Source: a bacterium (GTDB lineage Bacteria > SAR324 > NAC60-12). Taken from it: 64,000 nucleotides of DNA. Positions within the stretch are counted from its first letter, which is position 1; every line of letters begins with the position of its first letter. This document shows positions 40,581 through 58,583 of this stretch, one piece after another. Location of the stretch: the NCBI GenBank assembly GCA_965233585.1, contig CBDDTI010000745.1, positions 96,001 through 160,000 on the forward strand, read 5' to 3'. Below the pieces are notes generated by a model. That model made no database searches. It saw nothing but the letters and a program-made list of their open reading frames with translations, and was not told where the DNA came from. A program made the position numbers and the translations under genes.

Positions 40581-40589
40581 ATTTGAACG

Positions 40590-41979: not shown

Positions 41980-42389
41980 TCACTGGCATTTATAATAGAT
42001 AGTAACTACTGTGGGTTCCTCGCCCAGTAACTTGAAATAATAAGATTTTTGTACTGTAGCCAATCTTGCAGAGGGAAAAATAGTGTATAGAACAAAAATT
42101 GTTCCCCACCCAATAGTCTCTAAAAACTGTATAACCTCTGTATCTTGATCAATATTCCTAGTGATAAGCAATAATGGATTTACCCCCAAGGAACCGATCG
42201 TAAAAAATTCACCATTTTTTTGTAAATTTTTAAGGGTATAGAAGGATCATCATTAATAATAAATTCGTTTTTGGTTAAATTCATAAAATCATCTCTATAG
42301 CTAGTACAAGATGCAATAAGTTGTTCTGCCATGACGTCAGTTGTTAAAGCAAATAAGCAAGTAAAAAACAAAACTGCAATTTTTCTCAT
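41980..42389 (-). pseudogene. Secreted hypothetical protein split by a frameshift
   Basis: Two 69-aa ORFs join into one if the A7 run at 42215-42221 gains one base; signal peptide at the N-terminus. Confidence 0.7.
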
Positions 42390-42521
42390 AACAAACTTCT
42401 AAATTTAAATGAATTGATAGTAAAAATTTTCCAAAAGATGTGAAAAACTGATGAAGGGTACACAAAACCAATCACTCCTGTCAATGCCTGAATTTAAAGT
42501 CTATGGCATTCGCAAAATGTG

Positions 42522-44552
42522 TCAAGACCTGATTTTCTGGGAGCAAAACACGGTGGCGTACAATCCGATTCCGATGAGGTAGCACCAGTTTTGATTGCCT
42601 AACCCGATAACAGGCGAGACAATGTTAGGTAAAAACATCAGGGGAATGATTGCAAACAGCAAGGCGCTTTCAAAAAGGTTGTTTCGTTTGATGAAGTAAC
42701 GTTGTGTCAGGCAAGAAAAGGCAAACATTCCAACAATGGCAGTTCCAAAGATGACAGCAATTCGGAAAGGGTCGGTTATCCAGACCCACGTTGAAGGTGA
42801 TGTTGGGACTCCCACACTTTCAATCAAAATGAGTTCATTGTTAAAAAAGAACATAAACGGTAAAATCGCTGTCCTTATGTCGTATGAAAAACCCTGTATT
42901 CCTGTTTTAATAGGTTCAGACCGAGCAATGCCACTTGCTGCATAAGCTGCTAATCCAACAGGAGGTGTGTCATCAGCTAAAATTCCAAAATAAAAGACAA
43001 ACAAATGTGCGGCAATCGCTGGCACGATGTAGCCGTTGTCTTCTGCTAAAATCAAAATGACAGGAGCTGTTAAACTTGCCATCACGATATAGTTGGCAGT
43101 TGTTGGCAATCCCATTCCCAAAATCAACGAGGTCACACCCGCTAAAATCAAGATTAAAATAATGTTGTTACCTGCAATCGCTTCTACCACTTCCACCAAG
43201 ACTTGACCGATGCCTGTGAGAGTGATTGAACCAATCACGATGCCTGCAATTCCTGTTGCCACAGCGATTGGAATTGAGTTTTTTGCCCCTGTCACGAATC
43301 CGTTTAAAATGTCATAAAAGCCTTGTAGAAAAAGTGCTTTGGTCAGAGGAGTTTTTGTGAGCAATGCTTTAATGGGGTGTTGAAGCAACATAATGAGTAG
43401 CAAGAACATAATCGCATTATATGCGGCTAGTGCTGTGGACTGCCTTGCAAACAAAAGGCTGTACAGGAGAAAGAAAATGGGGACTAGGTAATGGATTCCA
43501 CTCAAGAAGGTTTTGACAAATGCAGGTAATTGTTTGCGGTCCATGCCTTCTAATCCCAATTTTAAACTTTCCAAATGCACAATGTAAAAGAGCGCAAAAT
43601 AGGAGACGAAAGCAGGAATGAATGCAGAGATGATGACGTCAGAATAGGCAATGCCTAGAAATTCAGCAATGATGAATGCTGCCGCTCCCATAATCGGGGG
43701 CATCAACTGACCGTTGGTGCTTGCTGCCACTTCTACTGCTGCTGCTTTTTCAGGTGTGAAGCCTGTCTTTTTCATTAAAGGAATTGTGAACGTTCCTGTT
43801 GTGACAGTGTTCGCAATGGAACTTCCTGACATAATTCCAGTGAAACCACTTGCGACAACACTTGCTTTAGCTGGTCCTCCCCTGAACGTCCCAAGCAGCG
43901 CATAAGCTAAATCAATGAAGTATTTGCCTGCCCCTGCTTTGTCAATCAAAGCACCAAACAAAACAAACAAAAAAATAAATCCTGCAGACACTCCCAATGA
44001 CACACCAAAAATCCCTTCTGACGTTAAGAACAGATGCCCTGCTAATTTGTGAAGGCTTGCTCCTTTGTGTGCAATCATATCAGGAAAGTAGCGTCCAAAA
44101 AGGTCATACAAGATGAACACAATGGCAATACAGCTCAATGCCAATCCTAAAGAACGGCGACCTGCCTCCAACAAAATGACAATTCCTACTAAAGCAACAA
44201 CAATGTCAAGGGTGATGTAAGCCCCTGGACGCAGCGAAAGCTCTTCGTAAAAAATGGCAATATACAGCATGACCATTGAGGCAACAACTGCCATGATGAA
44301 GTCATACCAAGGAATGCGATGAAGTAACTGAGTGTTTTTGTAGAGAGGATAAAGCAAAAATGCTAAGAAAATAGCAAAAGCAATATGAATGGAACGAATG
44401 ATGTCATTGGTGATGGGTGCTAAAACGACAAACAGCTGAAAACAAGACCAGACCAATGCAACACCAGAAGTCAGCCAAAACTCATAAGATTGAGGTTGAA
44501 AACTCCTGACACCCTCTAATTCAGTGAGTAATTGTTCCTCTTTCTGTTCCAT
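42522..44552 (-). CDS. TAXI-type TRAP fused permease (4TM/12TM)
   Basis: GGPAKASVVASG, SGSSIANTVTTG, ASTNGQLMPPIMGAAAF, GMGLPTTANY, ADDTPPV. Confidence 0.93.
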   Translation of the reverse strand: MEQKEEQLLTELEGVRSFQPQSYEFWLTSGVALVWSCFQLFVVLAPITNDIIRSIHIAFAIFLAFLLYPLYKNTQLLHRIPWYDFIMAVVASMVMLYIAIFYEELSLRPGAYITLDIVVALVGIVILLEAGRRSLGLALSCIAIVFILYDLFGRYFPDMIAHKGASLHKLAGHLFLTSEGIFGVSLGVSAGFIFLFVLFGALIDKAGAGKYFIDLAYALLGTFRGGPAKASVVASGFTGIMSGSSIANTVTTGTFTIPLMKKTGFTPEKAAAVEVAASTNGQLMPPIMGAAAFIIAEFLGIAYSDVIISAFIPAFVSYFALFYIVHLESLKLGLEGMDRKQLPAFVKTFLSGIHYLVPIFFLLYSLLFARQSTALAAYNAIMFLLLIMLLQHPIKALLTKTPLTKALFLQGFYDILNGFVTGAKNSIPIAVATGIAGIVIGSITLTGIGQVLVEVVEAIAGNNIILILILAGVTSLILGMGLPTTANYIVMASLTAPVILILAEDNGYIVPAIAAHLFVFYFGILADDTPPVGLAAYAASGIARSEPIKTGIQGFSYDIRTAILPFMFFFNNELILIESVGVPTSPSTWVWITDPFRIAVIFGTAIVGMFAFSCLTQRYFIKRNNLFESALLFAIIPLMFLPNIVSPVIGLGNQNWCYLIGIGLYATVFCSQKIRS

Positions 44553-44565
44553 TGGTTTTTTGTGG

Positions 44566-44999: not shown

Positions 45000-45038
45000 C
45001 GCTCCAATACAACAAGTAATGAATGTTTTGTCTTTCCT

Positions 45039-45241
45039 TTAATACGAACAATAAGTACTACCAAAAAAAACTCTATAAATCTGTCCGTCCGAACCTTTAT
45101 AAGTTCCTATATATCCATGTTGTAACCATATTTTCCCCAATCACAACTAATTAGTGTGGCGTACATTCCACCTATAGTATATGCTTGCAATGATACTGCA
45201 GTAAGCCAGCAGATAAAAAATAAACTCACAATTTTTTTCAT
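45039..45241 (-). pseudogene. Small secreted Tyr/Gly-rich two-Cys protein with a frameshift (absent from the ORF track)
   Basis: MKKIVSLFFICWLTAVSLQAYTIGGMYATLISCDWGKYGY, then a frame change near 45120, then HGYIGTYKGSDGQIYRVFFGSTYCSY-stop. Confidence 0.65.
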
Positions 45242-45288
45242 AATGTACCCTAAAAAATTTAAATCATAACGTTAAGTCATTGTAAAAT

Positions 45289-45310
45289 ACCTCCCTAGTC
45301 ATAGGGAGGT
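45289..45310 (-). terminator. Intrinsic terminator after the TAXI binding-protein gene
   Basis: ACCTCCCTA-N4-TAGGGAGGT followed by ATTTT on the minus strand. Confidence 0.7.
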
Positions 45311-45330
45311 TGTTCAAAACAAGAAGTCAA

Positions 45331-46275
45331 CTAAAGTAACCCTTGTTCTTCATAATACTTTTTAGCTCCATCATGGAGGGGAGCGCTCAAGCCTTCAAGC
45401 AAAGACTTTTTGGTGATTTTAGAATAGGCAGGGTGCAGTTTTTTGAAGGAGTCAAAATCATTTAAAATCGCTTTGGTGATGGTGTAAACAGCATGGTCGC
45501 TCGTGTTAGTGCTAGAGACTAATACTGCTTTGACCCCAAAACTTTCTACATCGTTAGAAATCCCCTTATACAAACCACCTGCAATGACTCCTTTGGCATA
45601 GTAAGGATACTTCTTGATTAGACCATCTACTGTCTTTCCTACGATTGGCACGATTCTAATTGGTGTGGAGTTTGCCGCATCTTTGAGATTAGCTGCAGGG
45701 TGTCCAACAATGAAAAAATAGCCGTCAATTTTTTGGTCTCTTAACGCATCAGGTGCTTCAGATGACCTCAAACTTCCTGCTAGCTTTAAATCATCTTCAA
45801 CAATTCCATATTCTTTGAGCAAGATTTTGGAAGTTGCCCGTGTTCCACTACCGAAGTTGTCAAGGTTAATTTTTTTCCCTTTCACATCTTCAATCTTACG
45901 AATCCCAGACCTTTGACTTGCAACAAAAGTCACAATTTCAGGATAAATTGCCATGACAGACCTTAAACCTTTGTAAGGCTTTCCCTCAAATTTTCCTGTC
46001 CCTTGATGTGCCTGATACACAACATCACTTTGTGCCATTCCCAAATCAAGCTCTTTTGATTTGATGTTGTTGATGTTGTAAACTGAACCACCTGTTGACT
46101 CAACACCGCATCGGACTTTGGACTCCTTTTTGTACTTGTTGACCAAACGGCAAACCGCCCCACCAGTAGGATAATACGTTCCCGTCACCCCACCCGTTCC
46201 AATCGTCACAAATTCAATGGCAAATGCAGGCAGAACAAACCCCAACATTGAAACCAAACTCACTATTCTCTTCAT
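45331..46275 (-). CDS. TAXI family TRAP solute-binding protein
   Basis: TIGTGGVTGTYYPTG, ESTGGSVYN, AQSD, PLHDGAKKYY. Confidence 0.93.
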   Translation of the reverse strand: MKRIVSLVSMLGFVLPAFAIEFVTIGTGGVTGTYYPTGGAVCRLVNKYKKESKVRCGVESTGGSVYNINNIKSKELDLGMAQSDVVYQAHQGTGKFEGKPYKGLRSVMAIYPEIVTFVASQRSGIRKIEDVKGKKINLDNFGSGTRATSKILLKEYGIVEDDLKLAGSLRSSEAPDALRDQKIDGYFFIVGHPAANLKDAANSTPIRIVPIVGKTVDGLIKKYPYYAKGVIAGGLYKGISNDVESFGVKAVLVSSTNTSDHAVYTITKAILNDFDSFKKLHPAYSKITKKSLLEGLSAPLHDGAKKYYEEQGLL

Positions 46276-46292
46276 TATGAACTCCTAAATTG

Positions 46293-46395
46293 AAATGAAT
46301 TGACCATCAAAATCTTCCACAGAATTATGAAAGATTTGGCAAGGATACACAAAACTCATCACTTATGCAAGTCTTTTTTTTAATCTTTGTGAGAT
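46293..46395 (-). promoter_or_regulatory. Promoter/leader copy P1 (upstream of TAXI binding protein)
   Basis: TTGCAT-N17-TATCCT (46370-46342); near-identical to 54762-54860 and 56823-56925. Confidence 0.75.
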
Positions 46396-46532
46396 TTAGT
46401 CTTGAACTAGCTTTTTGAACTAGCATTGATGACAAATCAAATGATTAAAGTTTTTGTGTAAACCAGTGATTTTTTCAGGGATCCAAACTGCATTGCCAAG
46501 ACAATGAGTTTGCCCCCCTTCAAAGACTTGAC

Positions 46533-47618
46533 TCAACCGTAGCGATACGGACGACCTGCTTTTTCCATATCAGCGTTGTATTGTTTGATGATTTTGACAA
46601 TTTTCGCTTTGGTTTCTGATTCTTCAGCAATTTCGTCCCAGAACTTATAAGCGGCTTGTTCTACTTGACTCCATTCTTCATCAGGGATACTTGTGAGTTT
46701 CATCTTTGTCCCGTTGACTCGCAATGCTGCCTCACCTCCCCAATACCACCATTGACGGTAATAGTGAGAGCTATCCATCGTCACTTTTAAAAGTTCTTTC
46801 AAGTGTTCAGGCAGTTCTTCATAACGTTCCATATTGGCAAAGAAAGAGCCTACCCAAGCCCCTGAAATGTTATTTGTGAGAAAGTAATCCGTCACATCTG
46901 CCCAGCCAACTGTGTAGTCTTCAGTGATTCCAGACCAAGCAATTCCGTCTAATTCTCCCGTTTGTACAGCGACTTCAATGTCTTCCCAAGGCAAGGTGAC
47001 AGGCACGACTCCAAATTGGCTAAGGAAACGTCCTGCTGTAGGAAAGGTAAAAACACGTTTGCCTTTGAGGTCTGCTAAACGATAAATTGGTTCTTTAGTC
47101 GCAAAATGACAAGGGTCCCAAGAACCTGCAGAAATATGTTTGATTCCCACTTTGCTATATTCTTCTTGCCAAATTTCATTGAGTCCATACTGATTGAAAA
47201 GCACTGGCACATCTAAGGAATAACGTGAGGCAAAGGGAAAGTATCCTCCAAATACCGTCACCTCCGTAGGAGACGCCATAGAATCATCATCAGATTGAAC
47301 AGCATCAATGGTGCCGCGTTGCATGGCACGGAACAATTCACCAGTGGGAACTAATTGGTCAGCAAAGTACAACTTGATTTCCATTTCATCACCAGCAATT
47401 TTATTGAAACTTTCAATAGCAGGTTTGATGACGTGTTCTGCCAAAGATGCCCCAGCGTAAGTTTGCAATCGCCAAGTAATTTTTGATTTTGCAATGGCAG
47501 GAGAGGCAATGCTTGTCCCCACTGCAGTTGCTGCCGCAACTCCCGTTCCTTTCACAAAATTTCTTCTTGTGACAAGGTCGTTTTTTTTGGTATCGCTACT
47601 TTTGATTGAATCACTCAT
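46533..47618 (-). CDS. dctP: TRAP DctP-family binding protein, Tat-exported
   Basis: TRRNFVK, SPAIA..ITWRLQT, DLKGKRV, EVAVQTGELDG. Confidence 0.9.
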   Translation of the reverse strand: MSDSIKSSDTKKNDLVTRRNFVKGTGVAAATAVGTSIASPAIAKSKITWRLQTYAGASLAEHVIKPAIESFNKIAGDEMEIKLYFADQLVPTGELFRAMQRGTIDAVQSDDDSMASPTEVTVFGGYFPFASRYSLDVPVLFNQYGLNEIWQEEYSKVGIKHISAGSWDPCHFATKEPIYRLADLKGKRVFTFPTAGRFLSQFGVVPVTLPWEDIEVAVQTGELDGIAWSGITEDYTVGWADVTDYFLTNNISGAWVGSFFANMERYEELPEHLKELLKVTMDSSHYYRQWWYWGGEAALRVNGTKMKLTSIPDEEWSQVEQAAYKFWDEIAEESETKAKIVKIIKQYNADMEKAGRPYRYG

Positions 47619-47822
47619 AATTTTCCTTTTGAGCTAAAAGTTTAAAAAAAGTGTCACAACTGAAACACTGATGTAACACGAAAAATAACAACATTTTGAA
47701 AGATCCTATTTCAGTCTCTGTGAGTTAAGAGTCTTTGCACAACCCACTTCAAATGATTGACTGCGTCTTCCCTGTCAGGTACGAAAAGGGTGCAAATCTG
47801 TTTCAGTCAACATGACTTCCAG

Positions 47823-49145
47823 CTATCTGCCGTAGAATTGTTCTGGTAGCCAAAGAGCAATTTGTGGAAAAATCATCACTAAGGCTAAAGCAACAATCAT
47901 AATCACGACAAATGGACTAATAGAAGCATAAATATCTCTAATGGTGATGCTTGGTGGTGCCATAGCACGCATCAAAAAAAGATTGTATCCAAAAGGGGGC
48001 GTCATGTAAGCAATTTGTGTGGTAATGGTATAAAGCACTCCGTACCATACTAGGTCAAAACCCAGTACCTTGACCAAAGGAATGTATAAAGGCGCTACGA
48101 TGACCAACATGGCAGTATCGTCCAAGAAAGTCCCCATGATGATAAAACTCAGCTGCATCAGAATTAAAATCATCCAAGGGTTAAGTTCTAATTGCTGTGT
48201 GAAGAATATTTCAATAGCCCGCACTGCCCCTAATCCATCAAAAACTGCCCCAAAGCCTAAAGCTGCCAAAATGATCCACATGAACATACAAGAAATCCCT
48301 AAAGTTTGCTTGAGACAAGTTTGAAACACTTCTTTTGTCATACGTCTTTTGACAAAGGCAGTGAGTAATGAAGCTAATGCGCCAATGGCAGATGCTTCAA
48401 CCAAAGAAGCCCAACCGTTGATAAAAGGGACAATCATCACAGCAAAGATTCCAATCGGTAATAAACCAGCTTGAAGCAGTTTTATTTTTTCAGACCAAGA
48501 CACTTGACGATGTTCTGAACTCATTGCAGGAGCTAAGTGGGGGTAAATTTTGCAAATGACTGCAATGTAGATGATAAACATGGCTGCCATCATCAAACCC
48601 GGAAGTATTCCAGCTAACCATAATTGACTTACAGGTTGACGAGCAATCATCGCATACAAAACCAACACCACTGACGGAGGCACAAGAATCCCCAAAGAAG
48701 AACCTGCTTGAATGACACCAGTCACCATGCGCTTATTGTAACCACGCCTTAGTAATTCTGGTAAAGCGATGGTTGAACCAATAGCCATACCTGCCACAGA
48801 AAGTCCATTCATCGCAGAAATCAAAACCATCAAAAGGATCGTGCCAATGGCTAAGCCTCCATTCAAAGGTCCCATCCAGACATGCAACATTTTGTACAAA
48901 TCATCAGCAATCTTAGTTTCTGAAAGCACATAGCCCATGAAAATAAAGAGAGGCAACGTCAACAAAGGGTACCACTTCATCAATTTCATGGCTGCAGAAA
49001 AAGGAAGACTACTGCCTCCAGTCCCCCACAACAACAAGGCTGCAATCGCAGCAGTGAAACCAATTGCTCCAAAAACACGTTGCCCTGTGAATAAAAGAAG
49101 CATCATGCAAGAGAACATGAAAATGGCTATCATTTCATAGGACAC
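47823..49145 (-). CDS. dctM: TRAP large permease
   Basis: LPLFIFMG, GSSLGILVPPS, GILPGL, YMTPPFGYNLF. Confidence 0.92.
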   Translation of the reverse strand: MSYEMIAIFMFSCMMLLLFTGQRVFGAIGFTAAIAALLLWGTGGSSLPFSAAMKLMKWYPLLTLPLFIFMGYVLSETKIADDLYKMLHVWMGPLNGGLAIGTILLMVLISAMNGLSVAGMAIGSTIALPELLRRGYNKRMVTGVIQAGSSLGILVPPSVVLVLYAMIARQPVSQLWLAGILPGLMMAAMFIIYIAVICKIYPHLAPAMSSEHRQVSWSEKIKLLQAGLLPIGIFAVMIVPFINGWASLVEASAIGALASLLTAFVKRRMTKEVFQTCLKQTLGISCMFMWIILAALGFGAVFDGLGAVRAIEIFFTQQLELNPWMILILMQLSFIIMGTFLDDTAMLVIVAPLYIPLVKVLGFDLVWYGVLYTITTQIAYMTPPFGYNLFLMRAMAPPSITIRDIYASISPFVVIMIVALALVMIFPQIALWLPEQFYGR

Positions 49146-49663
49146 ACCATCTCCTTTCCATAGAGTTTGTAAACATCTTTAATGAAAATTGCAATAGCTT
49201 GCAAGATCATCAAAAAGATACCAAGAACCATAATGATTTTGATTGGGTACAAATAAGGACGCCATGCCGTAGCGCTTCGTTCATTGTATTCTAAAGCGTA
49301 CATGGTGCTGTCTATTGCGCCGTAAAACAAAACACCTAGATAAAAAATCATAAAAAAAATAGTCATGCAGTCTAGTTTAATCTTGTTCCGTTCTGAAAGT
49401 TTTTCATAAAAAACGTCCATACGAACGTTAGCGTTCATTTGCAAGGCGTAAGGACCTCCTAAAATATAATAAGCCACCATCGCAAACTGCGCCATTTCCA
49501 AAGTCCAAAGAGAAGGCACAAAAAAAGTTTTAGAGACAGAAGACCACACCAAAATGAGAAGCATGACAAAAATACCATAGCCCACCCATTTCCCAATGAG
49601 TTGATTCAGCTTGTCAACAACTTGAACATAAAAACAAAAAAATTGATTCATCAAATCACTCAA
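49130..49663 (-). CDS. dctQ: TRAP small permease
   Basis: Four TM segments, WTLEMAQF, ANVRMDVFY; overlaps dctM. Confidence 0.9.
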   Translation of the reverse strand: MSDLMNQFFCFYVQVVDKLNQLIGKWVGYGIFVMLLILVWSSVSKTFFVPSLWTLEMAQFAMVAYYILGGPYALQMNANVRMDVFYEKLSERNKIKLDCMTIFFMIFYLGVLFYGAIDSTMYALEYNERSATAWRPYLYPIKIIMVLGIFLMILQAIAIFIKDVYKLYGKEMVCPMK

Positions 49664-49743
49664 TAAATTGTAATTGCCTCATCATCTAAAAAAAGATTAA
49701 AAAAATCAAATCATTCAGCTCAAAGTATAAAAACTCTTTCGCA

Positions 49744-51180
49744 TCAAATAATCTCAAAATAACGTTGCAAATGCCAAATTTCTTTTTGTTGTTTTTCAAA
49801 CCCTGCTTTGTCAGTTGAAAGACTATTGGAGTTTGTCATAGATTCCAAAAATTTTTGCTGTCGTGTCTCTTCCCAGAGTCGGGTGTAAGCAAAATGTTTA
49901 ACAAAGGGAGTTCCAAACCACTCATGCGCCATTTCAGATTGAAGCAAAAGTTCAGCAGCTTGTGTTAAAGAACTGGAAAGTTTCAGCTCTTGAGGAAACT
50001 TTTGAGCGTAGGCATTGCCAGCAACGGGAGAAGAAGGGTTTATTTTGTTCTTGATTCCCCACAATCCAGAGGCGATGGCAGCAGAAAGAGCAAGATACGG
50101 ATTCATGTCTGCACCAGCTATGCGATACTCTACCCGTTGAGAAGCAGCTGAACCAGTGATTGCACGTAAAGCACAGGTTCTATTTTCAATGCCCCACGTT
50201 GCGTCGGTTGGCGCCCAAAACCCCGGAATAAGACGTGTGTAACTATTGCAGTTGGAAGCGACTAAAGCAAGCAGTTCTGGCATCAGTTTTTGTTGTCCTC
50301 CAATAAACCAAAGCATTTCTTGGGAAAGCGTCCCGTCAGTTGATTCATCATAAAAGACAGGCTTTTCATCATGGTCTTGGAGAGAGAGATGCAAATGTCC
50401 AGATTGTCCGGGGTAGATTGGCGACCATTTTGCCATGAAGGTTGCCATCATCTCTTGTTTCTGTGCCAGAACTTTCGTAAAAGTTTTAAACAAGGTCGCA
50501 TCGTCTGCCGCTTTGAGTGCTGGCTGATACTTCAATGCCGCCTCTATCACTCCGGGACCAGTTTCTGTATGAATGCCTTCTAAAGGCATGTTCATCTCCT
50601 GACAAAGATCCATCAAATCATGGTAAAACGCATCATGTACTGACGAACGCAAAACGGAGTAGCCAAACATTCCCGGTGTGAACGTTTTAAGGTTTTGGTA
50701 GTTTTTTCCTCGCACACTTTCAACAGTTTCTTGAAAAAGAAAAAACTCAAATTCTGCAGAAGCCAACACCCTAAACCCCGTAGATTCTGCTTGCTTTAAA
50801 ACCCTTTTGAGCAAGGAACGTGGACACACTTCTGCAGCAGAACTTTCTGAAAAGTCAGCCAGACAAAGCGGGGTCATCTTTTTCTCCAAAGGAAGCATTC
50901 GGCAGGTTGTCAAATCCAAAGTCGCCCAAGCATCAGGGAATCCTTTTTGCCAGCCCGTAAAAGAGTCTTGCTCGTAAAGCTCATCAGCACTATCCCAACC
51001 AAAAATCACATCGCAAAAACCCAGACCTTTTTGAACAGCAGAAAGGAATTTTTCAGAACTCACATACTTCCCACGCAAAACTCCATCTAAATCAGTGATT
51101 GCTAGCTTCACTCTGTCAATCGCTTGTTGTTCCAAAAACGTTGCCGCTTCTTCAACAGTTTTTAATTCAAGTGGAATCAT
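49744..51180 (-). CDS. Glutamine synthetase-like gamma-glutamyl-amine ligase
   Basis: DLDGVLRGK, EFEFFLF, HTETGPG, ATFMAK, SGHLHLSL, WGIENRT, VEYRIAGADMNPY. Confidence 0.9.
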   Translation of the reverse strand: MIPLELKTVEEAATFLEQQAIDRVKLAITDLDGVLRGKYVSSEKFLSAVQKGLGFCDVIFGWDSADELYEQDSFTGWQKGFPDAWATLDLTTCRMLPLEKKMTPLCLADFSESSAAEVCPRSLLKRVLKQAESTGFRVLASAEFEFFLFQETVESVRGKNYQNLKTFTPGMFGYSVLRSSVHDAFYHDLMDLCQEMNMPLEGIHTETGPGVIEAALKYQPALKAADDATLFKTFTKVLAQKQEMMATFMAKWSPIYPGQSGHLHLSLQDHDEKPVFYDESTDGTLSQEMLWFIGGQQKLMPELLALVASNCNSYTRLIPGFWAPTDATWGIENRTCALRAITGSAASQRVEYRIAGADMNPYLALSAAIASGLWGIKNKINPSSPVAGNAYAQKFPQELKLSSSLTQAAELLLQSEMAHEWFGTPFVKHFAYTRLWEETRQQKFLESMTNSNSLSTDKAGFEKQQKEIWHLQRYFEII

Positions 51181-51189
51181 AAGAATTTT

Positions 51190-52008
51190 TTAAGTCATTT
51201 GAGTAGTGGTCATTGATGACATAGTGAAGTGCAACCAATTTCTGATTTCAACACTATGTTGTGGATAATGAAGAACCTCTTCAGGTAGATTGATTTCTTT
51301 TTGAAGGTTTTGCATGAAGTCTTCTATTCCTTCATCGGTGTCCATGTGTTGTTCTGTCAAAGTGTTCCCCATCTCTTTCAAAAGACCAAGCATGTCTTGA
51401 CATTGAAACTCGGGATGATACTGCACCCCTACAAAAACCCCTCCTTCAAATTCTATTTGTGCCGCTTGAACTGAACTATGTTGATTGCTTGCTAGTACAG
51501 TAGAACGTGCAGGGAGCTTTTCCACTTCGTCATAATGAACACAGAAACTTTGAAAGTTATCAGAACGTTTCTTCAAAAGAAAATGCTTTTTCCCTTTATC
51601 AGTTAATTTGATAGGAGTCGTGATTCCTATTTCAATGCCATTTGGTGAATCTCTTACTTGACCTCCTGCTGCCACTGTTGCCACTTGTAGCCCCCAACAA
51701 CTTCCGTAAAACGGAACGTGACTTTTAAAAACATCTTGAGCAAATTCAATTTGACGCAAGACCTCTGTTTTTTGATCCATCACACGCAGAGATGAGCCTG
51801 TCCACAAGACTCCAGTATATTGTTGCAATTCACGCACTGAGGGCAATTTGAAGTCAAGCTGTGCAGGAAAAGCAACATCAATCGCCGCATGAGGCACTTC
51901 TTCCATGACCAAATTGGAGAACTGCTGATGATAAACAGTTCGTTGCAAGGTCTGCATCTCCTTCAACCTAGCAGGAGTCTGTCCCTCTACTATTAAAAAT
52001 TTTTTCAT
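51190..52008 (-). CDS. Type 1 glutamine amidotransferase-like hydrolase
   Basis: WTGS, GSCWGLQ (Cys nucleophile), GVQYHPE (His-Glu). Confidence 0.88.
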   Translation of the reverse strand: MKKFLIVEGQTPARLKEMQTLQRTVYHQQFSNLVMEEVPHAAIDVAFPAQLDFKLPSVRELQQYTGVLWTGSSLRVMDQKTEVLRQIEFAQDVFKSHVPFYGSCWGLQVATVAAGGQVRDSPNGIEIGITTPIKLTDKGKKHFLLKKRSDNFQSFCVHYDEVEKLPARSTVLASNQHSSVQAAQIEFEGGVFVGVQYHPEFQCQDMLGLLKEMGNTLTEQHMDTDEGIEDFMQNLQKEINLPEEVLHYPQHSVEIRNWLHFTMSSMTTTQMT

Positions 52009-52052
52009 TCTATTACTAAAAATTTTTGCATTCGGTGGATTGACCTGCTTTT

Positions 52053-53225
52053 TTATAAACGATTCAAATCTCCAAGCACCGCCGCAGAAAACAACTTGGT
52101 CAAATCGTCAGCACAAAGCGGTTTAGCATTGGTTGGTGTAGAAGGGTCAGCTTCTGCCAAATCTCCAATGGATTCTGCTTGATCCAAAGGAATCTCAATT
52201 TCTCCAAGACTATGGGGAATGTTCAATTCCTGACGCAACTTCAAAAAAAACTCCAAAACACCTGATGTTCCTTGCCCGGGCAACTGAAGATAATTGCTCA
52301 AATAATCCATTTTTTCTCCAATGGCATCAGCATTTTGTTTGAGTGCATAAGGTAAAAGAATCGCATTGGTCAGTCCATGATGTGCATTATAGATTGCACC
52401 AATAGGATGAGCTAAAGAATGGACTGACCCCAATCCTTTTTGAAAGGCAGTAGCTCCCATCGTTGCCGCAACAAGCATCTGTCCACGTGCTTCCAAATCC
52501 TGACCATTTTGAAAAGCACGAGGCAGATAAGTTTTGACCAAACGCATTGCTTCCAGTGCAATCCCATCTGCCATAGGGTGATAACTCGGTGAACAAAATG
52601 CTTCCCAAGCATGAGTCATCGCATCAAGACCTGTCCATGCTGTGAGGTGAGCAGGCAGTGCCAAAGTCAATTCAGGGTCAGCAATGACAAGTGACGGGAG
52701 CATAGTAGGGTGAAAAATAATCACTTTACGTTGGCTTTGTGTGTTCACAATCACTGATGCACGCCCCACTTCAGAGCCTGTTCCTGCCGTAGTAGGAATG
52801 GCAATGACAGGCGGGAGGTTGGTTGCTTTGGCTTTTTTCCAATTTTCTCCTACATCTTCAAACTCCCAAAGTGGCAAGTCTTGTTCTGCCATCAAGGCAA
52901 TGGTTTTTCCTGCATCAAGACCTGACCCTCCACCCAAAGCGATGACTCCATCATGTTTTCCTTCCCTATAAACTTCAACACCATTGAGAACATTTTCCCC
53001 AGTAGGATTTCCTTGAACATCAGAATAAAGACTCACTTGCAACCCTTGACTGGTTAGTAGTTTAAGTGTGTTTTGAACAACTGGAAGATGAGCCAATCCT
53101 GCATCGGTGACCAATAACGGCTTTTGGATATTCTTATCACGGCAAGCTCTTGGCAGTTCTTGGATACGACCACGTCCAAACCAAATAGTGGTGGGATAAT
53201 TCCAATTAGCTTGTGGTAAAGTCAT
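52053..53225 (-). CDS. Iron-containing alcohol dehydrogenase
   Basis: GGGSGLD, PTTAGTGSE, DAMTHAWE, HSLAH..HHGL. Confidence 0.92.
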   Translation of the reverse strand: MTLPQANWNYPTTIWFGRGRIQELPRACRDKNIQKPLLVTDAGLAHLPVVQNTLKLLTSQGLQVSLYSDVQGNPTGENVLNGVEVYREGKHDGVIALGGGSGLDAGKTIALMAEQDLPLWEFEDVGENWKKAKATNLPPVIAIPTTAGTGSEVGRASVIVNTQSQRKVIIFHPTMLPSLVIADPELTLALPAHLTAWTGLDAMTHAWEAFCSPSYHPMADGIALEAMRLVKTYLPRAFQNGQDLEARGQMLVAATMGATAFQKGLGSVHSLAHPIGAIYNAHHGLTNAILLPYALKQNADAIGEKMDYLSNYLQLPGQGTSGVLEFFLKLRQELNIPHSLGEIEIPLDQAESIGDLAEADPSTPTNAKPLCADDLTKLFSAAVLGDLNRL

Positions 53226-53252
53226 CTTGGTTTTTGGAACGAGCAAAAGGTT

Positions 53253-54635
53253 TTAGAGTTTCAAGTGATAAGATTTAGGGCGTGTGAGGTGTTGATAACC
53301 AAGTGCGGAAAGCGTCACGCCACGTCCAGTATTTTTGACTCCAGTCCAAGCTAATGCTGGGTCAAGATAATCACAACGATTCATAAACACAGTGCCTGTC
53401 TCTAGGAATTGTCCCAGCTGTTTAGCACGTTCTACATCTTGAGTCCAAAGCGAAGCTGTCAATCCATACTGGCTGTCATTCATCAGCTGAAGGGCTTCTT
53501 GGTCATTGCTCACTTTCATTATGCCAACAACGGGTCCAAAACTTTCTTCTTGCATCACTGCCATCTCGTGATTGACATTCACTAAAACGTGAGGTGCCAG
53601 ATAAGGCGTGCCAGCACATGAGTTTTTAAAATGACTTTCATCAATCAAAGATGTTGCCCCTGAATGAACAGCCTGTGCAATTTGGCTTCTGACAAAATCT
53701 GCCGCTTGAGTTTTCACCATTGGACCTAAATTGGTGTCCTCTTCTAGTGGATTTCCAAGACGATATGCTTTGGTTTCTTCTACAAAACACTCTACAAATT
53801 CCTTGTAAATTGCTTGTTCCACATAAATTCTCTCAATACCACAACAAGATTGTCCAGAATTGAAAAATGCACCATCTACCAAACTTGCTACTGCTTGATT
53901 CAAATTGGCATCTGAACAGACGTAAGCAGGGTCTTTCCCCCCCAATTCCAAACCACAGGGAATGAACTTTTCAACAATGTTTTTTTGGACAACTTTTCCT
54001 CCTTCTACTGAACCTGTAAAAAACACTCCACAGGTGTCTTGATGAGCGACTAAAACGGCAGCCAGTTCGTGATTCAAGTGCAAATGTTGAAAGACTCCTT
54101 GAGGAAACCCTGCTTGTTGTGCCGCCTGACTGTAACGTTCTGCAACCAATGGAGTTTGGAAAGAATGCTTCAAAATCACAACATTTCCTGCAACCAATGC
54201 GGGTATGATGGCATTCACCGATGTCAGCCATGGATAATTCCAAGGACTCAAAACTACGACAACCCCTAAAGGTTCATGGGCAATCCAACGTTCAAAACCT
54301 TTCTTTTGATTAGGCAAGTCAGGGGCAAGGGCTTCTTGGGCAATCTCAATCATGTAGCCAGCACGTTCTGCAAAGCCGTCAATCTCAAAAGGGGTTTGAC
54401 TGATGGGTCTCCCCATTTGCCAAGTGATTTCTTCTGATAGTTGTTTTTTTTGGTCAATAAGAATCTCAACAAAACGTGTGACAGATGCAATCCGTTCTTC
54501 CAGCAAAAGTGATTTCCATTCAAGAAAACCCTGCTTTGCTTGTTTCAAAGCATTTTCAATGTCTTGATGGGTCTGTTGTTCTCCTTCTTTGTAAATTGAC
54601 TGGTCAACAGGGCTAATGGTTTGATAACGTCGCAT
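53253..54635 (-). CDS. Aldehyde dehydrogenase
   Basis: PWNYP, FTGSVEGG, LELGGKDP, NSGQSCC, EESFGP. Confidence 0.93.
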   Translation of the reverse strand: MRRYQTISPVDQSIYKEGEQQTHQDIENALKQAKQGFLEWKSLLLEERIASVTRFVEILIDQKKQLSEEITWQMGRPISQTPFEIDGFAERAGYMIEIAQEALAPDLPNQKKGFERWIAHEPLGVVVVLSPWNYPWLTSVNAIIPALVAGNVVILKHSFQTPLVAERYSQAAQQAGFPQGVFQHLHLNHELAAVLVAHQDTCGVFFTGSVEGGKVVQKNIVEKFIPCGLELGGKDPAYVCSDANLNQAVASLVDGAFFNSGQSCCGIERIYVEQAIYKEFVECFVEETKAYRLGNPLEEDTNLGPMVKTQAADFVRSQIAQAVHSGATSLIDESHFKNSCAGTPYLAPHVLVNVNHEMAVMQEESFGPVVGIMKVSNDQEALQLMNDSQYGLTASLWTQDVERAKQLGQFLETGTVFMNRCDYLDPALAWTGVKNTGRGVTLSALGYQHLTRPKSYHLKL

Positions 54636-54772
54636 GTGGCGTCTTTTGTGATGAGAAATTGATTGACAGTTGGTGTAAATCACTTTTTTTCATATCTCTC
54701 GCACTTCTGATTCTTTCAAGGGGTATGATGTTCTCTGTGTTTTAAAAAATTGTTTTCATTTAAATGAATCAT

Positions 54773-55313
54773 CAAAAACCTTTCACAGAATTATGAAAGA
54801 TTTGGCAAGAATACACAAAACTCATCACTTATGCAAGTCTTTTTTTAATCTTGGTGAGATGAGTTGAAAAATACCAAATCATTTTTGGAAAAGGTGTGAT
54901 AGCATTTTGCTGTTTTTTGACTTCTGACAAATTGACTGATGAATCGTCTCATTTACTACACATATTTTGCCTTCTTTGCCTTGGGTGCAGGAGTCGCAGA
55001 AGCAGGGATTACACTAGTTTGGTTTGATGAATTTTTCCCTTTATGGAGCAAGGAAACCATTTTATTCACAAGGTTTGCAGGGTCGTTGATTGGTGGGGCT
55101 TTCTTGATTGCCAAATTCAATCTTTCTCGGTTTTGTTATGTCACACTAGGTCTGGCTCATTTGCTGTTGCTTGTTCCGTCTGATGAAACAGGGATTTTTG
55201 CTTTTTTTATACGTGGCGTAGTGGGAATCATCTTGGTCATTTTTCATAACACACAGATTGGCATTTTGATTGAGAATTTGGAGAGGCGTCAGAAGGTGAT
55301 GAATCTGGCACAG
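54773..55313. repeat. Direct repeat copy A (541 bp): promoter P2 plus 5' third of the MFS gene
   Basis: Matches 56838-57378 at offset 2065; minus-strand TTGCAT-N17-TATTCT at 54836-54808. Confidence 0.95.
54939..55313 (+). pseudogene. Truncated copy of the MFS gene (frame runs on through attC to 55409)
   Basis: First 125 codons match 57004 onward, then unrelated sequence. Confidence 0.88.
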
Positions 55314-55333
55314 ACGGTGGGACGTTATTCAAT

Positions 55334-55411
55334 GCCTAACGCCAAAAACCAGAGGCTGACAGCACAGAGCGAAGCGGCGTTTTGGCAGTCCGCTGGAGTA
55401 CCTTGTTAGGC
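55334..55411 (-). mobile_element. Integron attC site (78 bp)
   Basis: Minus strand GCCTAAC...GTTAGGC (RYYYAAC/GTTRRRY), imperfect internal inverted repeat, upstream ORF stop lies inside GCCTAAC. Confidence 0.85.
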
Positions 55412-55513
55412 TTTTTTGTCTTTTGGTGATTTGTGATTTATGGCTTGATACGCAACGACACCAAGACCAGCGATAAAGAATAAGAATGTGAATATAAATA
55501 GGTATTGTCCCAT
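55406..55513 (-). CDS. 35-aa single-TM peptide (absent from the ORF track)
   Basis: MGQYLFIFTFLFFIAGLGVVAYQAINHKSPKDKKA; TAATG overlap with the upstream ORF; stop in the attC inverse core. Confidence 0.7.
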   Translation of the reverse strand: MGQYLFIFTFLFFIAGLGVVAYQAINHKSPKDKKA

Positions 55514-55737
55514 TACAATTTCAGACGGTCCAAACATTTAAAAACCTTGCGATTTATAGCCGCAATAATGACAGTGATAAAAACAATAGACATTGAGCAA
55601 AGAAGTAAAACTGCTATATCTTGTTCTTGAAAGTTTTGTACAAACCAAGCCAACAACGATAAATCGGTTGCTACAAAAATGGCAAAAACAACTTTATACC
55701 AACCAATTTCTTCTTTGATTCTAGCTTCCTCAGACAT
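55513..55737 (-). CDS. 74-aa two-TM hypothetical protein (cassette 2)
   Basis: Starts about 45 nt after the preceding attC core; two hydrophobic segments. Confidence 0.75.
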   Translation of the reverse strand: MSEEARIKEEIGWYKVVFAIFVATDLSLLAWFVQNFQEQDIAVLLLCSMSIVFITVIIAAINRKVFKCLDRLKL

Positions 55738-55783
55738 GGTTTTGATTTTATCAAGTCTGCGGTGAAAAGCAAAATTTGAACGA

Positions 55784-55843
55784 ACTTAACGCCCAAATAA
55801 GCGGTGGCTTTTTGATGTCCGAGTAGCATTTGCCTTGTTATGC
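55784..55843 (-). mobile_element. Integron attC site (60 bp)
   Basis: Minus strand GCATAAC...GTTAAGT starting 2 nt after the endonuclease stop; CAAAT/ATTTG inner arms. Confidence 0.8.
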
Positions 55844-55845
55844 AC

Positions 55846-56796
55846 TCACTCAACCCCAATTAACAATTCTGGAGCATGCCGAATTACAAATCTAGCAACA
55901 TCAGAGCCAGCTATTATATCTATGGCTTTACCTATTTTTTCTGAGGCTTGCCTAACACAATCTTCTAACTCTTCTGTTTTTTCTGCGGTAGTAATAAGCA
56001 GTCCACCATCAGCCTCGTACTTTTTAATACCATTCACAATTTGATCTACAGCATTTAAATCATAGTGTTTCCCTTCATAGGATTTTGCCTGCACTATCAA
56101 TCTACTGGTAAAACTAACCCCTATTATTGGGTTTTGAAACTCTACAATTAAATCCGCTCCATTATCAGTCTTCCACCCAAATCCGTTTTGTATGGATTCA
56201 ACATTGGGCATATTATCAAAAATTCTATGTAAAAACCTTTCAAACTCCTTGCTCTTATTCATTTCGTGAATATAACCACTAATTTGTGGTAGCAATTCAC
56301 TCACCTTTTCTTTGAGGTGAATAACCCCTCGAGACTCGTCTTGATTCTCTGAAAATTGATTCCTTTTGATGTTATCCAATGATTGTAAAAAATCTTTCAC
56401 CTGCAACACTCTCTGTCCTCTGCGCATGGGTGCCAAATTAACAGATGGCAGAATATTCACATCTTTACGATTAAATTCGACAATAGTTTTAGGGTCAACA
56501 GGAATGTAATTATTGAAATCACGACCCCAAGAACATTCTACTCCATCATCAAAATCATACTCCCCAGTAGATTGAACCGCCACACAATTGTCATAGCTTG
56601 GATTATTGATATGGACTATCCAGTCTCCTTTTTTGATTCTCAGTAAAAAAGCATTTTTTCCAAGATAGTTTTTTCTTAAGTCACCGCCTTGTGCCCATCC
56701 AAAACGAGATTTACCTAATTTGATTGACTCATAAACTTTTTTACGAGCGTCTTCGCAATTATCTATTTTTGCAAAAGCATAAACTTGTGTTTCCAT
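55846..56796 (-). CDS. Mrr-like (type IV) restriction endonuclease (cassette 1)
   Basis: EFERFL..IF, DNGADLIV, LIVQAKSY, GLLITT (Mrr_cat-type motifs). Confidence 0.82.
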   Translation of the reverse strand: METQVYAFAKIDNCEDARKKVYESIKLGKSRFGWAQGGDLRKNYLGKNAFLLRIKKGDWIVHINNPSYDNCVAVQSTGEYDFDDGVECSWGRDFNNYIPVDPKTIVEFNRKDVNILPSVNLAPMRRGQRVLQVKDFLQSLDNIKRNQFSENQDESRGVIHLKEKVSELLPQISGYIHEMNKSKEFERFLHRIFDNMPNVESIQNGFGWKTDNGADLIVEFQNPIIGVSFTSRLIVQAKSYEGKHYDLNAVDQIVNGIKKYEADGGLLITTAEKTEELEDCVRQASEKIGKAIDIIAGSDVARFVIRHAPELLIGVE

Positions 56797-56837
56797 TTTA
56801 TTCCTTCATTACTATTGAATTTAAACGAATTGACCAC

Positions 56838-57378
56838 CAAAAACCTTTCACAGAATTATGAAAGATTTGGCAAGAATACACAAAACTCATCACTTATGCA
56901 AGTCTTTTTTTAATCTTGGTGAGATGAGTTGAAAAATACCAAATCATTTTTGGAAAAGGTGTGATAGCATTTTGCTGTTTTTTGACTTCTGACAAATTGA
57001 CTGATGAATCGTCTCATTTACTACACATATTTTGCCTTCTTTGCCTTGGGTGCAGGAGTCGCAGAAGCAGGGATTACACTAGTTTGGTTTGATGAATTTT
57101 TCCCTTTATGGAGCAAGGAAACCATTTTATTCACAAGGTTTGCAGGGTCGTTGATTGGTGGGGCTTTCTTGATTGCCAAATTCAATCTTTCTCGGTTTTC
57201 TTATGGCACACTAGGTCTGGCACATTTGCTATTGCTTGTTCCGTCTGATGAAACAGGGATTTTTGCTTTTTTTATGCGTGGCGTTGCAGGAATCATCTTG
57301 GTCATTTTTCATAACACACAGATTGCCATCTTGATTGAGAATTTGGAGAAGCGTCAGAAGGTGATGAATCTGGCTCAG
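56838..57378. repeat. Direct repeat copy B: promoter P3 plus 5' part of the intact MFS gene
   Basis: Matches 54773-55313; minus-strand TTGCAT-N17-TATTCT at 56901-56873. Confidence 0.95.
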
Positions 57379-58134
57379 TTGATGTTTGGTTTAGGTGCTG
57401 CCTTCTTTCCATTGATGATGTTTGTCCTCAGCTGGCTTGGCACACAGCTTTCTACAATCATCACTTTGAGCATGATTTGCCTTGCAACTACCTATTTTGT
57501 CTTAGCCTTTTTATTTAAAGGCTGCTACGACTCCCAAACAGAAGAAAAAAGAAGCCAGCAAGAAGGTCAAACCAGCAAGCTCAATCTTGCTTTTTTAGGA
57601 ATTTACGTCAGCGTCTTTTTCATGTATGCAGGCATAGAAAACGGGTTGGCGGGATATTTACACTCGTGGGTTCTGGAGTATTTGACCTTTGATGCAGAGT
57701 ATGAAACGTATTTAATTTATTCGTTGTTTTGGCTATGCCTTGCGATAGGCAGACTTTGGGGGTATTTTTTGGGTTTCAGAATGTCTTCCTTTCAGATTGT
57801 CATGCTGAATAGTGTTGGAATGCTGGCAGGGGCAGGTTTAGTCATTTCTGGGCAAATTGTTATAGGTGTCATGTTGCTTGCTTTGAATATAGGACCAATG
57901 TTTGCCAACCTCTATTTATTGGTATATCGCACTTGTGGAACAACTGAGCAAATTTCTGCTTCTACCATGACTGCCAGCGGTTTAGGGTCTATGTTGATTG
58001 GCTCACAACTCAATCGCGTCCTAGATTTCTTTTTCCAAACAATTATCCTGCTGATTGTGATAATGACCTCCCTGATTCTTTTTGCAGAGATGAAGTATAA
58101 GCACAAAATGGCATCAACGCACAGAGGTCATTGA
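57004..58134 (+). CDS. MFS transporter (divergent, FucP/TsgA-like)
   Basis: About 12 hydrophobic segments, FGLGAAFFP, FFMYAGIENG, FW..LAIGR. Confidence 0.8.
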   Translation: MNRLIYYTYFAFFALGAGVAEAGITLVWFDEFFPLWSKETILFTRFAGSLIGGAFLIAKFNLSRFSYGTLGLAHLLLLVPSDETGIFAFFMRGVAGIILVIFHNTQIAILIENLEKRQKVMNLAQLMFGLGAAFFPLMMFVLSWLGTQLSTIITLSMICLATTYFVLAFLFKGCYDSQTEEKRSQQEGQTSKLNLAFLGIYVSVFFMYAGIENGLAGYLHSWVLEYLTFDAEYETYLIYSLFWLCLAIGRLWGYFLGFRMSSFQIVMLNSVGMLAGAGLVISGQIVIGVMLLALNIGPMFANLYLLVYRTCGTTEQISASTMTASGLGSMLIGSQLNRVLDFFFQTIILLIVIMTSLILFAEMKYKHKMASTHRGH

Positions 58135-58335
58135 CAGGTCAAGGTGAGCAATGACTAAAACGCAACCTCTCTCGGTCATTCCGTGCCTGACGCGGAATCT
58201 ATCACCAAACCAAGCACAGATTCCTAACATGACTGGATTCCTGCCTTCGCTCCGAATGACAAAAAAAGAGGCAAGAATGACCAAATGCAACACAGCAAAA
58301 TCCTCCTGTCATTGCTCACCTTGACCCGCAATCTC
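58135..58335. repeat. Cluster 5 of GTCAT-tagged palindromic repeats
   Basis: GTCATTCCGTGCCTGACGCGGAATCT, GGATTCCTGCCTTCGCTCCGAATGAC, GTCATTGCTCACCTTGACCCGCAATCT. Confidence 0.9.
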
Positions 58336-58583
58336 TTTTTTGTTCTTGTTTTATTTTTTTCTTTGCTTTGTTTCAACTTCTTCCTCTATCTTCCTTCAAA
58401 AAATGCTAGGGTTTTATTTTTTGAGTATTTTCAATTTAGGGGTAAAGATGTCAAAACGTTTAGATAGAGTAGAAAAAATCTTGGAAGAAGCTAGTGCCTT
58501 TGCTAAAGAGTACAAATGAAGGTTGAACAATGCAGTGAAATGCTATAGATTGTAGATTTTCTACTTTATTTATGGAGGTGTCT

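Follow-up and report, generated by a model that had tools for sequence, protein, structure and literature searches.

Organization of the locus

A short control region recurs in front of unrelated genes in the window, that is, the whole stretch of 64,000 nucleotides analyzed here (positions 96,001 to 160,000 of contig CBDDTI010000745.1, assembly GCA_965233585.1) from a bacterium of the SAR324 lineage. The five copies, designated c1 to c5, all stand in direct order inside 15 kb of chromosome (Table 1). Copies c1 to c4 are full copies that combine a promoter-like arm, a leader with an inverted repeat and the 8-bp palindrome ATTTAAAT, hereafter the octamer, and c5 is a partial copy. The original prediction had described three direct copies of about 100 nt, corresponding to c1, c2 and c3. 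Their positions and orientation hold, and so does the claim that each heads an unrelated minus-strand block: c1 precedes a gene for a TAXI-type TRAP binding protein, c2 the 8.4-kb block X1 and c3 the two-cassette block X2. The predicted size does not hold, given that c2 and c3 extend over ~545 nt, and the two further copies c4 and c5 had not been recognized. Copy c5 lies inside the TAXI operon and heads a 44-aa open reading frame (ORF), hicA and a 79-aa ORF.

Table 1. Copies of the control region, the blocks that they head and neighboring features, in window positions
Feature	Position	Strand	Description
69-aa ORF	42180..42389	-	Signal-peptide-like N-terminus; headed by c4; no family match
c4, presumably an old copy	~42366-42490	-	TTGACA-N17-TACCCT; octamer ATTTAAAT 42403-42410; ribosome site; ATG; ~8 codons
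TAXI-type TRAP fused permease	42522..44552	-	TIGR02123, 651 bits
79-aa ORF overlapping hicA	44566-44805	-	No family match; putative antitoxin by position
hicA toxin gene	44802-44999	-	PF07927, 30.6 bits
44-aa ORF	45107-45241	-	Begins within c5; signal-peptide start
c5, partial copy	~45195-45264	-	Start-proximal arm only: octamer ATTTAAAT 45257-45264, ribosome site, ATG 45241, ~13 signal-peptide codons
Hairpin CCTCCCTATGACTAGGGAGG	45290-45309		Terminator-like, after the TAXI binding-protein gene; c5 follows
TAXI family TRAP solute-binding protein	45331..46275	-	TIGR02122, 338 bits; headed by c1
c1, full copy	46251..46395	-	Start-proximal arm, octamer, leader hairpin, -10, -35, A-tract; boundary ATCTCAC at 46395
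c1 internal sites	46289-46296; 46342-46347; 46365-46370		Octamer (ATTGAAAT on the plus strand); -10 TATCCT; -35 TTGCAT
Block X1	46396..54757	-	Seven genes, 8.4 kb; headed by c2
X1 DctP	46533-47618	-	
X1 DctM	47823-49145	-	
X1 DctQ	49130-49663	-	
X1 glutamine-synthetase-like ligase	49744-51180	-	
X1 class-I amidotransferase/peptidase C26	51190-52008	-	
X1 iron alcohol dehydrogenase (Fe-ADH)	52053-53246	-	
X1 aldehyde dehydrogenase (ALDH)	53253-54683	-	
c2	54758..55313	-	Octamer 54758-54765; leader; -10 54808-54813; -35 54831-54836; upstream region; truncated membrane-gene copy
Truncated membrane-gene copy, ORF	54939-55409	+	In c2; continues into attC1
Block X2	55314..56818	-	Two integron-type cassettes; headed by c3; ~20 nt between the last attC and the c2 joint
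X2 attC-like site attC1	55334-55411	-	
X2 two small membrane ORFs	55406-55737	-	
X2 attC-like site attC2	55785-55851	-	
X2 Mrr_cat nuclease	55846-56796	-	
c3	56819..57378	-	Octamer 56819-56826 (ATTTAAAC on the plus strand); leader; -10 56873-56878; -35 56896-56901
c3, far part	within 56819..57378		Upstream region and 5' part of the intact membrane-protein gene
Intact membrane protein	57004..58134	+	376 aa, polytopic; no Pfam or NCBIfam match

Extent and divergence of the copies

The c2/c3 pair constitutes a repeat of ~545 nt (54770-55313 versus 56835-57378, offset 2065) that contains the promoter region, ~140 nt of sequence further upstream and the first ~125 codons of the plus-strand membrane-protein gene. 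Copy c1 has 91 nt in common with c2/c3, with four mismatches and two one-base indels, and the identity among c1, c2 and c3 over these 91 nt is 94-100%. The remaining copies are more distant. The identity of c4 is ~73%, and c4 and c5 together span a range of 72-80%. The local alignment score of c5 is 23 against c1 (13.6±2.4 in shuffles, 4 of 1000 of which reach it) and 25 against c4 (14.1±2.4, reached by 1 of 1000).

The differences between c2 and c3 are unevenly distributed. The first 362 nt contain none and the last 182 nt contain 14 (7.7%), which has a P value of about 2e-7 under an even spread. Half of these differences (7 of 14) fall at codon position 1 or 2. Such a mosaic of differences fits gene conversion acting on an older duplication. 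Each of the young copies c1, c2 and c3 also carries private changes within ~25 nt beside the octamer. These patterns fit duplications of similar, moderate age in c1, c2 and c3, with a central tract that was probably homogenized later by gene conversion, and c4 and c5 are, to judge from their sequences, older copies.

The membrane-gene fragment in c2 encodes a product that is 94% identical to the intact protein over residues 1-127, with six amino acids different. Its ORF stays open for 156 codons, the last ~30 of which come from the antisense strand of attC1, and the gene copy is apparently in decay.

Locality and assembly of the repeat

The 103-nt copy 1 was compared by BLAST with its own assembly of 12 Mb in 747 contigs, yielding 40 matches at E≤10. 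The three copies c1, c2 and c3 score E 6e-48 (self), 3e-35 and 3e-32, and the same search finds c4, 4 kb to the left of c1, at E 1e-3. The other 36 of the 40 matches span just 15-28 nt each, at E≥0.007. Since these remaining matches are short and weak, the segment is private to the locus and not a dispersed repeat, which answers the concern attached to the original prediction that the copies might belong to a genome-wide family. Neither arm of the repeat is copied elsewhere in the 12-Mb assembly, and no terminal inverted repeats were found at the repeat ends.

Could the copies have been produced by misassembly? The assembly is fragmented, with 747 contigs. The copies differ from one another at fixed positions, and variants of both the c2 and the c3 type are seen in sequencing run data. 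The stretch is present in four public runs, which derive from one study and at most two samples and are possibly the assembly's own source. Logan contigs of these runs cover 41800-46374, 46351-54802 and 55231-56867 with no differences. Because contigs run unbroken through 46351-54802 and 55231-56867, all four young joints are bridged, in 3-4 runs, although this support is perhaps not independent if the runs are the assembly's own data. An artefactual origin of the repeats is highly improbable. Cargo-free junctions between c1 and c2 or between c2 and c3 are absent from these contigs, which drop rare variants and are uninformative on loop-outs.

A single loose-end contig (run X1) deserves separate mention. 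In this contig, 249 letters of other sequence are joined at 56824, inside the c3 octamer. The last 30 of them do not occur in the assembly, with up to three mismatches allowed, and visual inspection shows two matches in them, of 11 nt and 6 nt, to the strand opposite the first codons of the Mrr gene. The loose end could be an amplification chimera or an alternative neighbor.

Promoter-like arm and leader

The original prediction placed a minus-strand promoter of the form TTGCAT-N17-TAT(C/T)CT in each of its three copies. This sequence is present in c1, c2 and c3, as TTGCAT followed after 17 nt by TATCCT or TATTCT, and the corresponding sequence of c4 is TTGACA-N17-TACCCT. The full copies also contain an A-tract on the minus strand. 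The conservation and position of the copies suggest that they act as promoters. On the plus strand, a promoter scan lists TTGACC-N17/18-AATTAT in c1 and c3, a possible promoter for the membrane gene.

From about +1, the leader contains the inverted repeat AAATCTTTCA-N8-TGRAAGRTTT and then a T-run. With a length of 10-12 bp, this inverted repeat is kept, with wobble, in all four full copies. Drawn as a hairpin, it has 12 pairs, one of which is changed on both sides in a comparison of four sequences only. The element could be an operator or a leader hairpin. Rfam returns no matches over 41800-58600. An operator of a wider regulon was considered and rejected: no regulon is visible, and the inverted repeat CTTTCA-N8-TGRAAG occurs only two further times in the genome.

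Breakpoints at the octamer

The homology breaks of c2, c3 and c5 all lie at the octamer. The similarity of c2 to c1 ends directly after ATTTAAAT, and that of c3 ends one base further. Past this stop, c2 and c3 match c1 no better than shuffled sequences do (266 and 285 of 2000 shuffles reach the two scores). Copies c1 and c4 remain alike until ~24 nt inside the coding region, with a score of 29 versus 8.9±1.8 and none of 2000 shuffles reaching it. Copy c5 is the mirror case, as its alignments to c1 and to c4 both begin at the first octamer base. The predicted common end point of similarity in the leader is thus borne out for c2 and c3, with c5 as a third junction at the octamer, and is not a property of c1, which continues to resemble c4 into the gene. 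Both recombinant products are therefore present at the locus, namely promoter arm, octamer and cargo in c2 and c3, and foreign 3' end, octamer and start arm in c5. Intact octamer sites remain in c1 and c4, the only copies that retain the full leader, ribosome site and start. The arrangement TAXI <- P | membrane gene ->, which the original prediction regarded as ancestral, is, on this sequence evidence, the most ancestral-looking layout.

The joint in c2 forms a perfect 14-bp palindrome, TTCATTTAAATGAA, and c3 alone has a G at octamer position 1, creating GTT. The octamer ATTTAAAT occurs 974 times in the genome and four times in the window, and three of these four occurrences are the sites described here. 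The upstream ends of the repeat are placed differently: ~25 nt upstream of the -35 hexamer in c1 (ATCTCAC at 46395), at codon ~125 in c2 (55313) and at about -50 in c4. This variation of the upstream ends between events argues against a defined element end. Fifteen other local repeats of the genome have no boundary motif in common with these sites.

The coincidence of junctions raises the alternative that ATTTAAAT is the true recombination site of an unlinked or lost enzyme and that the locus is a promoter-linked capture platform. An octamer-to-octamer segment would then be the cassette, its trailing promoter arm would re-arm the displaced gene, and the array would be integrase-less, following an integron-like logic in which the roles of attC and the common promoter Pc are merged. 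Three junctions at one 8-bp palindrome, the presence of both product kinds beside intact sites in c1 and c4, the direct order of all five copies, the 14-bp palindrome at the c2 joint and the loose end joined inside the c3 octamer are consistent with such a site. The promoter arms are, on the other hand, of arbitrary length, and one includes a truncated gene. The octamer is abundant in the genome, where neither arm is copied elsewhere, and no boundary motif is shared with the 15 other local repeats. Inverted repeats that could serve as binding arms do not surround the octamer in c1, c3, c4 or c5, the window contains no recombinase gene and the assembly no integron integrase above the family cut-off, and the single loose end may be a chimera. 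Given this balance, we consider a dedicated octamer site, and with it the integrase-less array, improbable.

The start-proximal arms of c1, c4 and c5 are the basis of a different alternative, in which the copies would be what is left of the 5' ends of genes for paralogous secreted or binding proteins, once arranged in an old tandem array. All genes of the array would have had an identical promoter, leader and signal-peptide start, and their bodies would later have been deleted or replaced. These three copies have in common a ribosome site, an ATG and 8-13 signal-peptide codons (MKRIVSL, MRKIAVLFF and MKKIVSLFF), and genomes of the family commonly have several paralogues of the TAXI binding protein. 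Against this origin, the sequence downstream of c4 and c5 shows no trace of the mature part of a binding protein (tblastn E≥6), the start arm is wholly absent from c2 and c3, and the divergent membrane gene inside the c2/c3 repeat is left unexplained. A decayed gene array is accordingly an unlikely origin for the copies.

Probable integron origin of block X2

The original prediction identified the third block as integron cassettes, and the sequence of X2 supports this assignment. Two sites in X2 have RYYYAAC...GTTRRRY cores. That of attC1 is the exact core pair GCCTAAC...GTTAGGC, and no shuffle of the window yields such a pair. The fold of attC1 is no better than those of shuffles (z -1.1). 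A distant BLAST search against plasmids yielded a weak match (E 0.1) on NZ_CP129023.1, located at the 3' end of a hypothetical gene after dfrA1, in the same orientation and where the attC of a cassette is expected. The plasmid site gives a long but imperfect hairpin on folding (z -3.2) and aligns with attC1 core to core over 74 nt, with a score of 33 versus 8.0±1.5 and none of 2000 shuffles reaching it. The attC2 site aligns in its 3' half, its score being reached by 0 of 1000 shuffles against the plasmid site and by 4 of 1000 against attC1. In each cassette, the attC-like site closes its ORF group at the 3' end and shares the strand of the ORFs. Because the sites are homologous to a plasmid inter-cassette site and are correctly placed and oriented, X2 appears to be a two-cassette fragment of integron origin, in which at least one attC is decayed.

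No further site of this family was found in the genome. A nhmmer profile of the three sites recovers from the assembly only the two X2 sites at E<1e-6, with the next match at E 0.9, and a strict hairpin screen together with motif counts reveals no attC family elsewhere. X1 contains no attC by eye or by the nhmmer profile. The absence of a visible recombinase, as originally noted, extends to all 51 scanned ORFs of the window, none of which belongs to a recombinase family. For the integron integrase (TIGR02249), the best match in the whole assembly scores 51 bits against a 265-bit cut-off and lies on another contig; the assembly is 92% complete, and absence is unproven. Matches below the TIGR02249 cut-off also occur in all 14 control genomes.

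Could an integron integrase have brought X2 to its present position? In this alternative, X2 entered behind the resident promoter, through a secondary site that overlapped or adjoined the octamer, in an ancestor or donor that carried an integrase, and the duplications and the insertion of X1 would be later events of general recombination. Recchia and Hall reportedly described cassettes fixed at secondary sites behind foreign promoters. The presence of two attC-type sites in the right orientation, the match of attC1 to the plasmid site neighboring dfrA1 and the GTT created by the G at c3 octamer position 1 are compatible with such an entry. The joints themselves are less so. Copy c3 matches c1 and c4 for 6 nt beyond G|TT, which places the crossover elsewhere than at that GTT, and the distal joint, which has no GTT, falls midway through the membrane gene, ~20 nt past the attC1 core. 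Furthermore, attC1 folds poorly, and the assembly has neither an integrase nor a further attC of this family. Integrase-mediated entry is therefore a doubtful explanation, one to be kept as a minority possibility.

Proposed serial insertion by general recombination

The structure of the inserts argues for a different origin. X1 is bracketed by c1 and c2, and X2 is bracketed by c2, with its truncated gene, and c3, with the intact gene. The original prediction held that a promoter copy is placed at the 5' end of incoming DNA; the inserts are instead flanked on both sides by duplications of resident DNA, of 91 nt for one and ~545 nt for the other. Because these flanking duplications differ greatly in length and one of them includes a truncated gene, single-crossover, duplicative insertion is indicated rather than a defined cassette end. 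An insert flanked by a resident duplication, with one copy reduced to a truncated gene fragment, is the scar of a Campbell-type insertion, and it is this scar that the locus displays.

We thus propose that the locus arose through serial, duplication-flanked Campbell-type insertions by general recombination, followed by gene conversion, with promoter reuse as the outcome. We assign this reading a probability of about 0.5. The locus looks like a set of repeated recombination scars at one small hotspot rather than a new gene-capture machine. The original unit would have been the control region between the TAXI-TRAP binding-protein gene on the minus strand and the divergent MFS-type membrane gene on the plus strand, comprising a sigma-70-like promoter, the leader inverted repeat with its T-run, ATTTAAAT, a ribosome site and a start codon. 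Blocks would have been added several times. After each addition, part of the control region would stand in direct orientation at either side of the insert, one copy reading into the new block and the other left to the displaced gene.

How would one such addition proceed? The donor fragment would already have had the order upstream point, promoter, octamer and cargo, and an illegitimate end join would have circularized it. The circle would then enter a resident copy by ordinary homologous recombination, a crossover that leaves no scar. The end join would correspond to 46395/46396 for X1 and to ~55313/55314 for X2, and the other novel joint of each insert would be the pre-existing joint of octamer and cargo. 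A fragment starting ~25 nt upstream of the -35 hexamer would generate the 91-nt repeat around X1, and one starting at codon ~125 of the membrane gene would generate the 545-nt repeat around X2 together with the truncated gene copy. Later gene conversion would have made 362 nt of c2 and c3 identical, and c4 and c5 would be earlier rearrangements of the same region. We infer the circular intermediate, the donor alleles and the order of events from the joints that they would leave. A Campbell-type insertion is the one mechanism found that reproduces all four young joints, and it explains the truncated membrane-gene copy.

The genome provides general support for this proposal. It contains 222 low-copy local direct-repeat pairs, and at least one further locus, outside the window (C745:208604-210938), has a 258-nt direct repeat of 94% identity and a spacing of 2078. 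One copy spans the start of a 459-aa gene with 37 nt of its upstream sequence, and the other precedes two ORFs that lie between the copies. The layout, a gene 5' end duplicated around an insert, is the same as that described here.

Several points weigh against serial insertion by general recombination. The proposal requires donors of the promoter-octamer-cargo type, none of which has been seen, and no relative of the locus exists in the collections searched. The question is thereby moved one step back, and the triple joint at the same 8 bp is left unexplained. The breaks of c2, c3 and c5 fall within 1-2 nt of the octamer edges, and random illegitimate breaks in ~100 nt would rarely coincide in this way, with a rough post hoc estimate below 1-3%. 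The recurrent 8-bp breakpoint is the one feature that general recombination does not predict. Moreover, RecA-dependent integration would have had only a short homology of 91 nt to use. The promoter component is also open to objection: the hexamers are weak, agreeing with the consensus at 7 of 12 positions, and the promoter scan does not list them. The scan total of 26 shows no excess over shuffles (33.1±5.8).

Two consequences would follow if the locus is indeed the product of ordinary recombination. It would be a clear natural example of insertions that avoid polar damage, as old and new genes both keep a promoter, and it would indicate that a chromosomal promoter can permanently acquire integron cassettes even where the genome lacks an integrase. 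If the octamer were a real recombination site, genes would here be stacked in a new manner, each block behind its own copy of one promoter, and each insertion would express the newcomer and re-arm the displaced gene.

Genes of the locus and its relatives

The domain set of X1 suggests an operon for amine catabolism of the gamma-glutamylation type that includes a dedicated TRAP uptake system, and all of its enzyme matches are under the NCBIfam equivalog cut-offs. The Mrr protein of X2 has weak PADLOC matches only, and its plasmid homologues are 30% identical. Neither block shows a sign of foreign composition by GC (guanine plus cytosine) content or trinucleotide profile. X1 stands at the 73rd percentile of same-length background in GC, and 46% of background segments are at least as far from the genome trinucleotide profile; the corresponding values for X2 are the 11th percentile and 24%.

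The intact membrane protein had been labeled MFS in the original prediction. It has no Pfam match of its own, and its single homologue among 5.8 billion clusters (P0001, 71% identity, on a 40-kb contig) carries MFS_1 (PF07690). An MFS-type identity is plausible on this indirect basis. The hicA pair is located between the TAXI binding-protein and permease genes, which are adjacent, ~250 nt apart, in 7 of the 8 loci of relatives.

The TAXI pair is conserved in relatives, and no other gene of the window stands beside it in the 8 loci. Among 40 related genomes searched at the DNA level (24 from the same family and 16 from the same order), none has the repeat, and the membrane protein is found in 0 of 44 family genomes. 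X1-like genes occur in two relatives in a different order, which is uninformative. An exact 25-mer had no matches in metagenome contigs, a degenerate 24-mer had none in genome contigs, and protein-guided collection scans for relatives of the locus returned none.

Other repeats and small genes were noted in the surroundings. A local 130-nt repeat of 75% identity (41944-42073 and 40578-40700) flanks a histone-deacetylase-family gene (40723-41832) beside c4. Directly past the membrane-protein gene, 58140-58370 holds a cluster of short dispersed repeats with small hairpins, for example ATTCCGTGCCTGACGCGGAAT, with up to ~84 BLAST matches per position genome-wide and a contig depth of 36-65 versus ~5-10 nearby. 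The window also contains other small genes of the defense or addiction type, namely one with a PIN domain, preceded by a 101-aa ORF, and one with a SocA/Panacea domain (36357-37108 and 26409-26960).

Comparison with known systems

Integrons and CALIN, the latter being attC clusters without an integrase, a name said to come from Cury et al. in 2016, resemble this locus in that a promoter reads into captured units, and X2 itself consists of two attC cassettes with no integrase nearby. Unlike an integron, the locus has no intI that would define an attI, and its 8.4-kb operon has no attC. The octamer site is located downstream of the promoter-like hexamers. The repeated border unit is the promoter region rather than attC, and each block has its own promoter copy instead of a single Pc. 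The locus is thus not an integron, and X2 qualifies loosely as an integrase-less attC cluster.

Correia elements, ERIC and REPINs are promoter-bearing miniature repeats (PMC3575422). Like these elements, the repeat described here is short and would supply promoters to neighboring genes. They are dispersed, with terminal inverted repeats and often target duplications, whereas this repeat is local and has neither. A promoter-bearing miniature inverted-repeat transposable element or a repeat derived from an insertion sequence was rejected, as there is no copy outside the locus and no inverted repeat at the ends.

Another parallel is promoter capture by duplication at the rnk-citT junction of Cit+ Escherichia coli (Blount et al. 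2012, as summarized in PMC3575422). As in a Campbell-type insertion and in this case, the inserts lie between direct repeats of resident DNA, with one gene copy truncated and the other intact, and, as at rnk-citT, a resident promoter probably comes to drive new genes. The locus differs from a simple tandem duplication in that the cargo is single-copy; in addition, no vector or donor is known, and at least three events occurred at one site.

The original prediction knew of no named element that works in this way. Putative mobile promoters have, in fact, already been described: more than 4000 families in 1,362 genomes place highly similar upstream regions before unrelated genes, with the mechanism left open (PMC3575422), and promoter reuse in prokaryotes was treated by Matus-Garcia, Nijveen and van Passel in 2012, according to the same source. 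To form a family by the definition given there, non-paralogous genes of one genome need upstream regions with ≥80% identity across ≥50 nt (PMC3575422). Copies c1, c2 and c3 fall within this definition, at 94-100% over 91 nt, located 30-177 nt upstream of the starts of the TAXI binding-protein, ALDH and Mrr-family nuclease genes. As in those families, similar upstream regions precede non-homologous genes, are not tied to a known mobile element and have spread in an unexplained manner. Unlike in those families, all copies here are found in one 15-kb stretch, in series, in one orientation and with a common 8-bp breakpoint, and one pair carries a truncated flanking gene that exposes its rearrangement.

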